Below, in pieces: positions 8,298-32,000 of a stretch of DNA of 32,000 nucleotides; position 1 is the first letter of the stretch, and the number at the start of each line of letters is the position of its first letter. The position numbers and the translations under genes are program-made. Below the pieces are notes generated by a model. It was not told where the DNA came from. It ran no database searches and saw nothing but the letters and a program-made list of their open reading frames with translations. This stretch comes from Candidatus Saccharimonadota bacterium (GTDB taxonomy: Bacteria; Bacillota_I; Bacilli_A; Mycoplasmatales; Hepatoplasmataceae). The stretch spans positions 510,001 to 542,000 of the forward strand of contig AP027133.1 of assembly GCA_027925325.1 (NCBI GenBank). Reading direction: 5' to 3'.

Positions 8298-9380
8298 ATG
8301 GAAAGTGAAATATCCAAAAGCACTGATAATCAAAAGTATTTAATTCCTATTGATAATGAAAATGAATTAAAGGAAGATGAAGATGAAGCATTTAAAAAAA
8401 TGTTTATTTTTTTAAATGCTAATTATAAAAATTTATATAAAGAGAATTTAAAATTAATTGAATTTTTTAAAAAAAATATTAAATGTTCAATTCTAGATGA
8501 ATTTAATTCTAATACAATAATAAATTATTCAAATTGAGTTTCATATAAAGAGTTATCTGAAATTATTTGTTCAATTAAAAAAGCTAATATTGATATCAAT
8601 GACTTAATAATTGTTTTTGATAAATTTGCTAAATTTATTGATTATTATTCAAAAAAAAATAGCCCCAAGTATTTTGATATTAATAGAACAACTGAAATTA
8701 TTAATTTAATAAAAAATTTTAGTATTATAAATGACCAAATTTCTTCTAATTTATATAAATATATTAATTATTATGAAAAAAAAATTTCTCATTTAATTTT
8801 AGAAAAATCTATTAAAGATAATATAAATATAAGCGAATTAAAATTACGAGAAAACAAAAAGAAAGAGAAGCAAAAAGATTTTGATAAAACTATCAATTTA
8901 ATAATTAAGGATAAAAAAATTAGTAAAAAGGATAATTTTGAAAAAAATTTAGTAATAATTAAAAATCTTTCTTTTTATTATAAAAATGAAATATTAAAAT
9001 CAATGTGATATCATAAATTAATAACATTAGATGAATTAATTAATTGTGAATTTATCGCTAAATCCAAAAAAGAACAATTAGAAATAAATTTTAAAAAAAC
9101 AAAACAAAATTTAAAAGAAGAAAATCATATCTTTAATTTTATTTTCGCAAAATTAGAAAGTACAAGAAAATATCGTAATAAAATTTCTCATTTAGAAAAT
9201 TTAATTATTTCTAAAAAATCAGCAAATAATTTATATGATTATTTAGAAAAACAAGAAGATTTGATGAGAAATGGAGTTAGTAAAAGTATTTTATTTAAAA
9301 TAAAATCTATTTTTTTAGAAAATGAGTTTATAAGAAATAATCAATTTACAAAAAAATATTATCAAAAATTTTTAGAATAA
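8298..9380 (+). CDS. Hypothetical protein (360 aa) with a C-terminal Rx4H motif; possible HEPN / AbiD-AbiF-like
   Basis: The frame from the ATG at 8298 continues through two TGA codons to TAA at 9378-9380. It is Lys/Asn-rich. The motif STRKYRNKISHLENLI (RNKISH at 9174-9191) fits the HEPN R-[N/H/D]-x3-H signature and the RNxxxH box I recall from Abi_2 proteins. The domain call is tentative. Confidence 0.55.
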
Positions 9381-27084: not shown

Positions 27085-27942
27085 ATGCCTCTTGTAGGTG
27101 GAAAAATCTTATTAAAAGACGCAATAAAGAAACAATATGCAATTCCTGCCTTTGGAATTGTTAATTTAGAAGGAGCAAAAGCAGCAATCGAAGCTGCTGA
27201 GGAATTAAATGCACCTATAATTTTACAAACAACAGAGGGAGGAATAAATTATGCCGGCCATGAAGAATTAGCAGCAATTGCGATTGCTTGTGCCAAAAAA
27301 GCAAAAGTTCCTGTTGCTATTCATTTAGATCATGGTCGTGATATTAAATATCATAAAAAATCACTCGAACTTGGTTATACTTCATTAATGATTGATGGTT
27401 CAGTATTATCATTAAATGAAAATATTAAAATCACAAATCAGGTCAAAAAACTAATTAAAAATGATAATATCACGCTCGAAGCAGAACTTGGAATAATCGG
27501 CGGAAAAGAAGATGATATCGAAGAAGAAGCTGATAATTTTACTAAAGTTGAAGATGCAGTTAAATTTATAGATAACACTGATATCGATATGCTTGCAATC
27601 GCTTGTGGAACTAGTCATGGTTTTTATCATAAAGAACCTAAAATTAATTTTGCTTTAATTAAAGAAATTACAACAAAAACAAAAAAACCACTTGTATTGC
27701 ACGGAGGAACGGATGTTCCTTTAGAACAAATTACAAAAGCTGTAGAGGCAGGAATTAGAAAAGCTAATTTTGATAGCGAACTTAAAAAAGCCATTATTTG
27801 TGGAATTTTGGAATACATGTATCAAAATCCTGATGCTTTTGATTTAAGAAAAATTTTTCGTAAGGGAATAGATCAAGCAAAGGAAGTTGCAAAAAGCAAA
27901 ATAAAAGCTGTTGGTGCGGTTAACAAAAATTGATTAAAATAA
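27085..27942 (+). CDS. Class II ketose-bisphosphate aldolase, tagatose/fructose-bisphosphate aldolase family (GatY/KbaY-like, 285 aa)
   Basis: Motifs seen: AIPAFGIVNLE, IHLDHG, GTSHG and VLHGGTD. The TGA at 27931 is read as Trp, and the true TAA is at 27940-27942. It is a clearly diverged paralog of fba at 17409-18275. Confidence 0.85.
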
Positions 27943-27952
27943 TTTTTATAAA

Positions 27953-28915
27953 TTATTTATCTTTAAATTTTTGATTCATTACAAAATAATAAAAAAGCGA
28001 TAATAAATTAATAATAAATAATAAAACACTCTCTACTAATAAGATTATATTTCCTGCATCTTTATAAATAATAAATTGAGCAACCGTTGCCCCTTCAAAA
28101 AATATCCATGCAAATCAATTTTTCTTAGTAAGTAAAATTATTCCTGATATTTGCATAATTGCAAATATCGTGTCTCAAACAGGATTGATATCATATATCA
28201 ATCCTGTTTTTTGTACATAACTAAAAGCATATCCATATTTATCTAAATCAACCTCAATAATTTCTAATTGTTGATAATTATCTTCATTCGGAATTGTATT
28301 ACTTAATTCATAAAAAGTTTGATCTTTTGCAAAAAATATCGGTGTAATTAAAATTAAGGCTAATAGAATAAAAACGACTGTAATTATTAAAATAAAAATA
28401 AATGATTTAAAATTAAGTTCTGATTTATAAGGATTTTTATTATTAATTTCATCTTGATCTCATTTAAAATAGCAATATTGAACAAAACAAATTTCGATTA
28501 AATCAGTAATTACAATTCATCAGGCTCCATAAATAATATCTATAAATAACAGTAAAATTAATGCTATTTGATTATATCAAACAAATTTCTTCGAAAACTT
28601 AATCAAATAAATATTTGAAATAAATCAAAAAGTTGTTGCTATCATGCTAAATATAAGAACAAATCAAGAAATAATATATAAAAAATTATCTCTTGTTAAT
28701 CCACTATTAGTTACTATTCCATATTTACCATTTATCTCCTTTGCAAAGGCAAATTGATTTGTAAAATTAAACCCTAATTGATAAAAAATAATATTTATAA
28801 TTGAAGTTAAAAAAATAACGATAATAAAAATTACAATAATATAAATTGTAAAATCATCTTGTCTTCATTTATTTAATTTAAATAAATCTTTTAAATTAAA
28901 AAATTTCTTTTTCAT
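27953..28915 (-). CDS. PnuC-family membrane protein, copy 2 (320 aa)
   Basis: Hand translation gives MKKKFFNLKDLFKLNKWRQDDFTIY...IDIIYGAWWIV...ILLTKKNWFAWIFFEG.... It is colinear with copy 1, with roughly half of the residues identical by eye. Confidence 0.62.
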
Positions 28916-28990
28916 ATCATTACATTTTAAAAAAAATTAAAGATTAAATAAAATAAATGATTTCTATATAATTTAGATAAAATTTTAATT

Positions 28991-30658
28991 ATGGAAAATT
29001 TTATTGTAAATAAGGGTTATTCAATTAATTTAATTGTAAAAGAGGAAGACACAGAATTAATTGATGTTGGGAATGAATTTATTATAGAAATAAATAAAGA
29101 GTATCTTAAATACAAAAATAAATTACAACAAGAAACTATTAAATTTGCAAAATATAAACAAAATAATAATATTTATTTTTCGCAAGAAAAATTATTAAAG
29201 AGATCTCCGCTTACAATTTTAAATGCCCCATGGGGAAGTGGAAAAAGTCATTTTATTGAACAACTTGCAAAAAATTTTATCGATCAAAAGATAAATTTGT
29301 CAACATTTAAAAATATTATTATTTTAGATGTTTGAAAATACTCAAATGCAAAACATATTCCTGATGAAATAATGGCTGAATTATTCTTCATCCTTTCTAA
29401 AATATATGATCAAGATGAATCAAAAAAATTAATGCATAAACTTCACCGCTTTGCAATTAAATTTTTTAATGCAACAGCAATTTCTTGAATAAATTATTTT
29501 GGTAAAACTGACTTTGATAAAATTCAAATCAAAGAAATAAATGAAATCGATGAAATAATAAATAATATATCAAAAGACATTGAACCAACTTTGGTTATTT
29601 TTGATAATATCGAAAGAATCGGAAAATATTCCTGGGAAATTTTGAAGGCAATCTTCAAAATATCACAAATTGATAATTTTTGTTTTATTTTACCGATGAA
29701 TTTAAATAAATTAAATTATAATCAAAACGAAAATAGAAGAAATGATGAATACCCGATAGAAAAATATATCGACTTACCGATATTTGAATTTGAACAAAAT
29801 TATCTATCTTTTTTAAAAACAAATGGAATCGAAAAAGAAGAAGCAATAATTATAAATAATATTTTAAATACGGAAATTGATGGAAAAAAATTATCAATTC
29901 GTGAAGTAGAACAACGATTTAATAAAAATGATATTTTTAAGATAGATAATAAATATTTAAAGATAGATAAAATAGTTAAAAATGTTTGGGGATCGGTAAG
30001 TGAAGCAAAAAAATATTTAGATGAAGAAATAAAAGAATTTATCGATAAACTAATTGAACTAGAAAATAGTTTTAAAAAAATTAAAGAATTTATAATTTCT
30101 AAAAAATATAGCTTTACGCAAGAAAATAAAAAAAGTGAAATTTACAAAAATCTTAATTTAAATCAAATTACAAAAGAATATATTGATCAGATTTTTAATA
30201 ATGAATGAAACCACTATCATAATTATGAAAAATGAATCGATGTATTTAACGATATTTTAAAAAATATCAAAATCTATTTAAATCAAAAAAAGCAAAATAA
30301 ATTAAAATTAATATCACTACAAGAAAAAATAAATGCAAAAATTAATCAATTTAATGATAATCTTAAAAATCAAAAATTAAAGATTGAAAATAATGATGAA
30401 AAAAATATTATTTTATTTTTACAAAATAAAAATAATTTAATTAAGCAAGAAATATATAATATTGAAGAAGAATATAGAAATTTAGATTACGATAATCTAG
30501 AGAAATATATCGTAGATTATAAAGAAAAAATAAATCAAATATCTCAAAATACAAATGTATATCTAATTAATAAATACTATATGTGAGATCGAAAATTTGA
30601 TTATGAGCGAGATAATTCAAACTATACTAGCTATTTTGTTGATTGCTTATTTAGTTAA
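28991..30658 (+). CDS. KAP-family P-loop NTPase-like protein (555 aa)
   Basis: One frame runs from the ATG at 28991 through six TGA codons to TAA at 30656. It has the Walker A LNAPWGSGKSHFIEQL (29225-29248), followed by IIILDVWKYSN (like the KAP xFNAWxY box). The Walker B-like LVIFDNIERIG (29591-29617) resembles the KAP hhhhDDLDR box. The C-terminal region of about 250 aa is Lys/Asn/Glu-rich and helical. Confidence 0.72.
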
Positions 30659-30698
30659 AATTATTTATTTATAAAAAAGAATTAAAAGGAGTTAATTA

Positions 30699-30992
30699 AT
30701 GGAAAAAGAAAATTTTTCTTGGGATGAAAAAAGAAAGATCTGAGAAAAACAATACGGCAATAGATTAACAGGGTATGATATTTTTGGTCGATTTGTTGGA
30801 AGATGCGGTCTTGAGGTTTATCATATTCTTCCTAAATCAAGGGGTGGAAAAACAGTAATTGAAAATGCAATAATTTTGAGTCCAGCTTCGAATCGAGAAA
30901 AAGGAGAAAAATTACACGGAATTATAAATAAAAAATATTTTCAAGTATTAAATATCGGAAACGGAATTGGTAAGATAATTATCAATCAATAA
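30699..30992 (+). CDS. Small HNH-family endonuclease-like protein (97 aa)
   Basis: The SD sequence AAAGGAG (30685-30691) precedes the ATG at 30699. The core reads ...GYDIFGRFVGRCGLEVYHILPKSRGGKTVIENAIILSPASNREKG..., giving the H...N...N spacing of the HNH/HNN beta-beta-alpha-metal motif. It contains one TGA codon. Confidence 0.68.
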
Positions 30993-31016
30993 ATTTATTA
31001 TTAAGGAGTTAAATAA

Positions 31017-31343
31017 ATGGAAAGTAATATTGAAAGTGATATTTTTTCTAAAGCAGGAAAGAAAGCAATTTGAAAAAAACAATTTGGAACACATTTTACA
31101 GGATATGATTCTTTTGGCAGATTTGTTAGTCAATGCTGTTCTGATACAAAATGTTGCTCAAGTGTTTCTTTAGTTCTTCCAAAAACTTATGGAGGAAAAG
31201 AAATTTTTGAAAATGCAATGATTTTGCATCCAAAATCATTAGAAGAAAAAAGTGATAAATTGCACGGAATTATAAATAAAAAATATTTCCGAATTATAAA
31301 TAATCAAGATGGAACAGGCAGATTAATTGTTAATAATAAATAA
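31017..31343 (+). CDS. Degenerate HNH paralog (108 aa) lacking the catalytic His, with a CCxxxxCC insert
   Basis: The SD sequence AAGGAG (31003-31008) precedes the ATG at 31017. It aligns along its full length with the upstream gene, but ...YHILPKS.. becomes ..SLVLPKT.. and SNREKG becomes SLEEKS. It has the inserted sequence QCCSDTKCCSS. Confidence 0.6.
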
Positions 31344-31360
31344 ATTAATTTTGATGAAAT

Positions 31361-31392
31361 AAAAAGCACGTTAATAAAGAACGTGCTTTTTC
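31361..31392 (+). terminator. Intrinsic terminator closing the three-gene operon
   Basis: AAAAAGCACGT-TAATAAAGA-ACGTGCTTTTT lies 18 nt after the stop at 31343. Confidence 0.7.
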
Positions 31393-31467
31393 ATTTTATT
31401 ATTGCATTTAAAAATAATATAATAAATTTAAATATTAATAAAAGTAATTTTTAAGAAGGATAATTAA

Positions 31468-32000
31468 ATGAAAAAATACTATGCTATATTTTTGATTCCA
31501 CTAATTGGCGTTATGCCTATTAATAGAAATATTAGTGAAAAAAATATCTCAGCAGAACAAACTGTAATTACTGATTTTTCAGCAGGCGGGCATCATTCTG
31601 GAATAATTGTTGATACAGATAATGATTATTATGCTGACACTCTTTATATGTGAGGTGATAATGAATATGGAGAAATTGGAAATGGTAAGAATTTTGAAAC
31701 TGTTAGTACACCGCAAATAATAGATTATGATTTTAAAGGTAATTTAATCAATCTTGAGCTTGGAGTAATTCATTCTGGCGTTACAGTTGATTCTGATTAT
31801 GATGGATATGCCGATACCCTTTATATGTGAGGTGATAATGATTTTGGTCAAGTTGGAAATGGTACTAGCGGAGATGAAAATATGTCTGTTTCACCAGAAA
31901 AAATTACTCCTGAAGATCAAGACAATTGAAACGGTAATATCGTTGACTTATCATTATCAGCAATGAATACCTCTGTTAGTATCGATACAGATTATGATGG
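31468..32000 (+). CDS. Secreted RCC1-like (beta-propeller) repeat protein, N-terminal part; it continues beyond the window
   Basis: The RBS AAGGA and a hydrophobic signal-like N-terminus (MKKYYAIFLIPLIGV) are present. Repeats read GxxHSG..V.D[TS]D.D.YADTLYMWGDN..G[EQ][IV]GNG with a period of about 59 aa. The W residues are TGA-encoded. Confidence 0.72.

Follow-up and report, generated by a model that had tools for sequence, protein, structure and literature searches.

What function can be attributed to three adjacent genes, all annotated as 'hypothetical', that stand on the plus strand near the end of a 32,000-nucleotide stretch of DNA (hereafter the window) from Candidatus Hepatoplasma scabrum? 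By exact database matches, the window belongs to this symbiont of the isopod Porcellio scaber, whose genome measures 606 kb (PMC10928387). The genes are referred to here as g1, g2 and g3 (HPPSJP_4910, HPPSJP_4920 and HPPSJP_4930). A first-pass annotation made from the letters of the window had described them as a KAP NTPase, a minimal HNH nuclease and an inactivated HNH paralog, with the active nuclease as effector and the dead copy as accessory. As judged by sequence comparison, the conserved unit is instead the KAP NTPase together with a catalytically dead HNH-fold protein, and only H. scabrum has the three-gene form. The locus looks like a candidate defence module built around a KAP NTPase, with an unusual pair of live and dead HNH proteins, a composition that has not yet been described. 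The defence repertoires of Mollicutes with genomes of ~0.6 Mb are barely charted; the genome paper on these symbionts lists only restriction-modification and CRISPR-Cas9 as defences and does not mention this operon (PMC10928387). KAP NTPases have only recently been shown to act against phage. A soluble KAP protein tied to a very small HNH-derived partner that has lost its catalytic residues offers a simple case of KAP-output coupling, and the recurrent pairing of intact with degenerate HNH domains provides a structural hypothesis on how the subfamily works. The practical reach is limited: only a few uncultured symbionts have the family, and its function is a matter of inference.

The window has 26% G+C and its TGA codons are read through. 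Reading it with the bacterial code (table 11) splits all three genes into short open reading frames (ORFs), and this reading was rejected in favour of genetic code 4 (TGA = Trp), under which exactly three plus-strand ORFs are obtained (Table 1), at the places given by the first-pass annotation. AAGGAG Shine-Dalgarno sites precede g2 and g3, as had been noted from the letters; before g1 no such box was found. The strong terminator reported after g3 was also recovered and is the sole one in 28800-31500 (one observed versus 0.2 expected from shuffled sequences). The arrangement of the three genes is operon-like.

The first gene encodes a KAP-family P-loop NTPase without the transmembrane insert, on both counts as initially proposed. 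Pfam KAP_NTPase (PF07693) matches residues 76-260 with 56 bits against a cut-off of 20 (E 4.7e-15). The homologs of g1 number 22, nearly all of them Hepatoplasma-like, and in an alignment of 20 homologs W81, G82, G84 and K85 of the Walker A motif (WGSGKS, residues 81-86, for the pattern GxxGxGK[ST]) are invariant, while D113 in LDVWKYS (112-118), which fits the (D/N)xW.Y strand motif, is nearly so. The canonical Walker B form of KAP NTPases is DDLDR. That of g1 is the variant VIFDNIER, with D205, N206, E208 and R209 invariant, and the same complete conservation is seen for an E..IEK motif and for R304. Transmembrane helices inserted in the P-loop domain are common among KAP NTPases, though not universal. 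No transmembrane segment was found in g1, whose highest 19-residue Kyte-Doolittle window reaches 1.16 versus 3.6 in the neighbouring membrane protein, and residues 114-196 consist of soluble helices only in an AlphaFold2 (AF2) model. The model, with a predicted local distance difference test (pLDDT) of 79.4, has three parts, beginning with a strand and a long helix at the N-terminus, followed by the P-loop core and then by a C-terminal half made of helices. The C-terminal region, in which these helices are long, is rich in K, N, I and E. A fold search with this model retrieved RdrA (8hr8, E 8.6e-4), BrxC, ORC/Cdc6 and Trip13, all of them weak matches (TM ~0.3), so that the general ATPase class is confirmed and no more. 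The same genome contains a second KAP paralog, HPPSJP_4970 (P0010), about five genes downstream of g1 and outside the window, which shows 52% identity to g1 across 77% of its length.

The two small proteins belong to the HNH fold by less direct evidence. Protein g2 falls just below the Pfam cut-offs for both HNH_4 (19.3 bits, cut-off 22) and HNH (19.0 bits, cut-off 21.4), and aligns with the Cas9 HNH domain across the D-H...N...N core (E 0.024). No Pfam match was obtained for g3 alone, and its HNH homology is established solely via g2, with which it shares 50% identity (E 8e-36). When a g2/g3-type profile was run with HMMER against all 1.84 billion representatives, a subfamily of 53 proteins was obtained, mostly of ~100 amino acids (aa), with the consensus F..(x)IW.K.FG....G.D.FGR.V...NF..DHI.P.S.GG.....N.IPL.P.SN.EK.D.L.G.INGK.F.V. 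PF01844 was matched by 18 of the 30 aligned members (E up to 0.01; best 8.5e-08), and the subfamily profile matches solved HNH domains at E ~1e-3. The small HNH subfamily to which g2 and g3 belong is therefore genuine. Its key residues, D-H-N-N, correspond to Y-H-N-N in g2 and to S-L-N-L in g3. Residues H42, N56 and N65 of g2 align with the catalytic His, the structural Asn and the metal-binding Asn, respectively. The residue just before the catalytic His, a metal ligand (Asp or His) in HNH endonucleases, is Tyr41 in g2. In g3, the catalytic His (L52) and the last, metal-binding Asn (L75) are both replaced by Leu, as the first-pass annotation had stated, and the same losses occur in all g3-type orthologs. 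Every g3-type sequence carries the four Cys of a CCx4CC insert, which is absent from g2 and from the remaining subfamily.

Protein P0051 (1574 aa, 8 'stretches') was rejected as a low-complexity false positive. A further HNH-like gene of 77 aa is found on the minus strand in H. vulgare (L007, 6036-6269), and it passes PF01844 with 28.4 bits. It is degenerate, in that the catalytic His has become Tyr (DYIKP) and SNxEK reads SIEEK, and lies downstream of UvrA and a metallo-beta-lactamase gene, 3.7 kb from the KAP paralog of that genome.

Comparison with sister genomes revealed which part of the cluster is kept. Three strains of H. crinochetorum (Ps, TKY and Av) and three metagenome contigs have a g1 ortholog, with 66-75% identity. 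Directly after each of them stands one small gene, which is of g3 type in all six other loci (6/6), with the His and Asn lost and the four Cys kept; the g3 orthologs are 69-77% identical. With H. scabrum included, the KAP gene and the g3-type gene are adjacent in seven loci/genomes, with Shine-Dalgarno sites and gaps of 24-174 nt (in strain Av the dyad is X271_00552 and X271_00553). Genes of g3 type occur directly after a KAP ortholog and nowhere else. A second g2-type sequence was found nowhere, including the scan of 1.84 billion representatives and a word-indexed protein search that yielded 7 proteins, and g2 is known from H. scabrum alone; a genome-collection scan with a narrow alignment matched only H. 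crinochetorum Ps. In a neighbour-joining distance tree, g2 is sister to the entire g3-type clade in 95 of 100 bootstraps (g3 clade, 100/100), indicating that the duplication is older than the species split and that g2 was lost in the others. The ratio of nonsynonymous to synonymous substitution (dN/dS) is 0.27-0.5 for g3-type genes and 0.14-0.33 for the KAP genes, that is, both are under purifying selection. Given this ratio and the invariant Cys4 insert, g3 is no pseudogene. Neither a g1 ortholog nor a g3-type gene appears in the homolog lists for H. vulgare and Tyloplasma.

These data change the roles proposed at first. The view of the active HNH as effector and the dead copy as accessory is not borne out: elsewhere it is the dead type alone that accompanies KAP, while g2 is present in one genome and has YH in place of DH. 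Co-occurrence of the triad, which had been suggested as a check, was not observed, since the triad never recurs, although the dyad of KAP and dead HNH does. The locus is also not a conserved core locus of all related Mollicutes, the dyad being confined to the crinochetorum/scabrum clade.

In the explanation that we put forward, and to which we would give an even chance, the genes constitute a lineage-restricted Ca. Hepatoplasma operon acting in genome conflict, either as anti-phage or as anti-mobile-DNA defence. With its intact Walker A and B motifs, g1 would bind and hydrolyse nucleoside triphosphates, its N-terminal domain and long helical C-terminal half may serve sensing and assembly, and it would partner with the small HNH-fold protein encoded immediately downstream. 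In the 20-homolog alignment the full g1 tail (Table 1) is common to the orthologs with a g3-type neighbour and is not found in the paralogs; this restriction hints at a possible interface between g1 and g3. The conserved partner is g3. As it keeps the residues of the HNH fold, without the catalytic His and the metal-binding Asn and with the Cys4 insert, it is proposed to act as a nucleic-acid-binding or adaptor subunit and not as a nuclease. In H. scabrum, the surviving older paralog g2, with its His and both Asn, could form with g3 a catalytic/non-catalytic heterodimer as the nuclease output. A more specific form of this proposal is possible, though distinctly doubtful: KAP plus the Cys4 dead HNH would be an undescribed two-component immune module of Mollicutes, in which the pseudo-nuclease serves as nucleic-acid sensor or adaptor of a soluble KAP motor, and H. 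scabrum would represent the ancestral three-gene state with a cleaving heterodimer of intact and dead HNH. If this were true, pairs of intact and degenerate HNH, fused or split, might be a general design of the small HNH subfamily.

Fused proteins of the subfamily offer an analogy for such a pair. Of the six members with at least two subfamily domains, five (P0030, P0056, P0060, P0067 and P0068) contain a single intact D-H-N-N domain beside one or two degenerate copies, and the structural Asn is retained in all domains, which argues for a retained fold. By this analogy, g2 and g3 look like the split-gene counterpart of the fused tandem proteins, and the recurrence of the fusion suggests that they may act as a catalytic/non-catalytic pair. 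The fusions thus favour the earlier view of the dead copy as a partner of the live protein. In addition, the small HNH module is fused to TrkA-N and TrkA-C (RCK) ligand-binding domains in the metagenomic proteins P0042 and P0047. These fusions suggest a ligand-gated nuclease architecture, as for a regulated effector module.

The case for defence comes largely from genomic surroundings. Past the aldolase gene, the sister Hepatoplasma genomes have a variable restriction-modification/defence hotspot, with type II methyltransferases (C5 and N4/N6), a Tsp45I-like gene and an ATPase resembling AriA/PtuA/GajA. This stretch, to which the KAP dyad belongs, also holds a second KAP paralog, within a conserved KAP-X-N4/N6 methyltransferase-700-aa operon. 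More distant KAP relatives, at 38% identity on two metagenome contigs, have as neighbours a Panacea antitoxin, GmrSD_N, a PHP plus SMC-like ATPase and a CBASS-type SMODS cyclase, and this region of the two contigs (L012 and L013) is a textbook defence island around these relatives. Recently, KAP NTPases fused to uncharacterised C-terminal regions were reported to block phage in a Walker-B-dependent manner (PLoS Biol 2026, PMC13552941). QatA of qatABCD is a KAP NTPase as well. The defence idea of the first-pass annotation has accordingly gained circumstantial support, from the neighbours of orthologs and relatives and from other KAP NTPases (PMC13552941). The argument is one of association, drawing on sister-genome neighbours, distant KAP relatives and the published anti-phage proteins, and it leaves a defence role evenly poised.

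Some details of these surroundings can be added. The hotspot lies at 734-9370 in L003, 10001-16505 in L005, 7534-9976 in L004 and 7561-9927 in L008, and its AriA/PtuA/GajA-like ATPase is on the opposite strand. Two sister genomes have a C5 methyltransferase and two uncharacterised genes directly upstream of the g1 ortholog. L012 and L013 (4000-14700) are near-identical contigs of a code-4 organism that carry the same 586-aa KAP relative with different downstream genes, namely a 408-aa uncharacterised gene and the SMODS cyclase in one, and GmrSD_N and the PHP/SMC-like ATPase in the other. Panacea-domain genes are found upstream of the KAP relative in both.

The module would work like Septu, qatABCD and the single-protein KAP defences, without belonging to any of these. 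EF_KAP and three gut-metagenome KAP proteins share with g1 a KAP domain followed by a C-terminal region of ~300 aa without recognisable domain (PMC13552941), and protection by EF_KAP requires both Walker B and this region (PMC13552941). The likeness is judged on architecture: EF_KAP has transmembrane helices and g1 has none, and those proteins act alone, whereas g1 always precedes a small HNH-fold gene. Like qatABCD, the locus places a KAP-family NTPase and a nuclease-type protein in one operon; nevertheless, the nuclease QatD is a TatD protein whereas an HNH fold is found here, no QatB or QueC-like QatC genes are present at the g1 locus, where the neighbours encode a membrane protein and an RCC1-repeat protein, and PADLOC gave no QatA/Qat match among g1-g3. 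Septu shows the same two-gene architecture of an ATPase and a small HNH protein. Its PtuA is an ABC/AAA_15-21 ATPase, in contrast to the KAP protein g1, which is not ABC/SMC-like; the conserved HNH partner here is catalytically dead, unlike the HNH protein PtuB, and no PtuA/PtuB match was obtained in PADLOC for g1, g2 or g3 at E up to 1. RdrA of RADAR provides the best solved-structure match of the g1 model, both being large defence-type P-loop ATPases with helical extensions, but the likeness is weak (TM ~0.3, 12% identity), no RdrB deaminase is present and PADLOC gave no RdrA match. As for the small proteins, g2 aligns with the core of HNH_4, the Cas9-IscB-type HNH (PF13395), and subfamily members match both PF13395 and PF01844. 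Unlike the Cas9-IscB HNH domains, each of the two is a separate protein of ~100 aa, and they have an N-terminal motif of their own, W..(Y/F)G....D.FGR, and a C-terminal extension, G.INGK.F.V.

Several observations weigh against a defence operon with nuclease output. Most genomes with the module have no catalytic HNH, which indicates that nuclease action is not the conserved output. In g2 itself, Tyr41 occupies the position of the metal-ligand Asp that most subfamily representatives have, which makes its predicted activity uncertain; the equivalent change in the Cas9 HNH domain, D839A, disables that domain. The structure model of g2, built from a 3-sequence alignment, is poor (pLDDT 39.5). Other members of the small HNH subfamily stand alone, without an NTPase. 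In PADLOC, no model matched beyond the P-loop or HNH core, with g1 matching mad8 by its P-loop alone and g2 matching generic HNH cores alone (E up to 1), and the NCBIfam and PHROGs searches returned generic P-loop or HNH cores at most. Searches of phage, plasmid and IMG/VR collections were negative or trivial and yielded no relatives. Finally, inheritance of the dyad is stable and vertical, with the same place kept in H. crinochetorum and H. scabrum (dS ~0.8). Such stability is unusual among defence genes and suits a cellular role specific to the lineage.

Such a role is the alternative that survives best, although we regard it as rather unlikely. KAP with its helical tail and a DNA-binding, dead HNH-fold partner would then serve chromosome or nucleic-acid housekeeping, with g2 as a leftover paralog. 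The syntenic position of the dyad in all H. crinochetorum strains and H. scabrum, the purifying selection on it and the lack of relatives in mobile elements are all in its favour. So is the presence of at least one KAP paralog in every Hepatoplasma genome examined; two KAP paralogs or relatives have housekeeping genes around them, one next to UvrA (L007) and the other between WhiA and SerRS (L009). On the other hand, H. vulgare and Tyloplasma lack the g1 ortholog and the g3-type gene by the homolog lists, the KAP relatives have variable partners and neighbours of defence-island type, and the bacterial KAP NTPases of proven function are anti-phage.

It is improbable that g2 and g3 are a toxin/immunity-like pair, with g2 as nuclease toxin and g3 as decoy or inhibitor, or else a selfish HNH element, that came to lie beside a functionally unrelated KAP gene. 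Small HNH genes of the subfamily do stand alone in other organisms, pairs of active and dead domains recur without KAP, and the tandem duplication takes in the Shine-Dalgarno site, as might be expected of such a pair. Nevertheless, six other loci have a g3-type gene but no g2, and in each of them the g3-type gene directly follows the KAP ortholog. Moreover, orthologs with a g3-type neighbour are the sole ones to share the distinctive C-terminal tail of g1, and a single terminator follows all three genes. Even less probable is a decaying, functionless remnant of an NTPase plus HNH defence system in a shrinking genome. Although the catalytic residues are gone in g3, the Asp is gone in g2, g2 itself is gone from the sister genomes and these genomes are reduced (~0.6 Mb), all reading frames are intact and have Shine-Dalgarno sites, dN/dS is well below 1 for g1 and the g3-type genes, and no variation is seen in the Walker motifs, the Cys4 insert or the fold residues. 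That the genes are a divergent member of a named NTPase plus nuclease system, Septu (PtuA/PtuB) or qatABCD, is scarcely credible, since beyond the general logic of an NTPase beside a nuclease and the KAP nature of QatA it is contradicted by the PADLOC result (g1 without PtuA or QatA match at E up to 1, mad8 by P-loop only) and by the absence of QatB, QatC and QatD equivalents; the first-pass annotation had likewise pointed to no named system of such composition, and P-loop or HNH-core noise without PtuA, PtuB or QatA was all that PADLOC returned.

Table 1. Coordinates, strand and properties of the features of the three-gene locus in the window.
Feature	Position	Strand	Description
TATAAT hexamer upstream of g1	28967-28972	+	weak evidence
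g1 (HPPSJP_4910)	28991-30658	+	555 aa, in-frame TGA 5; soluble KAP-family P-loop NTPase, helical C-terminal half
Walker A of g1	29225-29248	+	residues 79-86, APWGSGKS
Walker B variant of g1	29591-29617	+	residues 201-209, LVIFDNIER
Helical C-terminal region of g1	29996-30655	+	residues 336-555; tail YLINKYYMWDRKFDY..DNSNY..YFVDCLFS
Shine-Dalgarno AAGGAG of g2	30686-30691	+	
g2 (HPPSJP_4920)	30699-30992	+	97 aa, in-frame TGA 1; small HNH_4-like, Y41-H42, N56, N65
Shine-Dalgarno AAGGAG of g3	31003-31008	+	
g3 (HPPSJP_4930)	31017-31343	+	108 aa, in-frame TGA 1; degenerate HNH paralog, S51-L52, L75
Cys cluster of g3	31134-31157	+	C40, C41, C46, C47 (CCSDTKCC), just upstream of lost D-H position
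Intrinsic terminator closing the three-gene unit	31361-31391	+	12-bp stem plus T run

Concerning the DNA upstream of g1, the TATAAT box that had been proposed as promoter is present, but it carries no weight, since promoter-like sites in this AT-rich DNA are at chance level (25 observed versus 25.3 expected). The genes had also been said to begin where a minus-strand run of ~29 kb ends. These 29 kb are mostly minus-strand but not throughout, as plus-strand genes occur at 8298-9380 and at 27085-27942 (fructose-bisphosphate aldolase). The former is a 360-aa ORF between uvrA and uvrB without Pfam match; it occupies the place at which H. vulgare has its KAP gene beside UvrA and was considered as a remnant of that gene, an idea rejected because the two show no similarity.

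Past the terminator, a gene for an RCC1-repeat protein (PF00415, E 2.9e-14) runs off the end of the window (31468-32000). The gene contains internal repeats of ~177 nt, and its product, which has a hydrophobic leader at the N-terminus, is probably a secreted or surface protein not related to the operon. Divergently upstream of g1, the minus strand encodes a 320-aa multi-pass membrane protein (27953-28915) without family match. Its orthologs in H. crinochetorum lie ~2 kb downstream of the dyad, beyond YchF, indicating that a rearrangement breakpoint flanks the operon of H. scabrum. Around YchF, beside the dyad of H. crinochetorum-like genomes, genes for heptad-like repeat proteins of 82-113 aa (NLDxKVxxLDxRV...) recur, at 1590-1838 and 3082-3348 in L001, at 2695-2982 and 4585-4926 in L002, and at 12148-12396 in L003.

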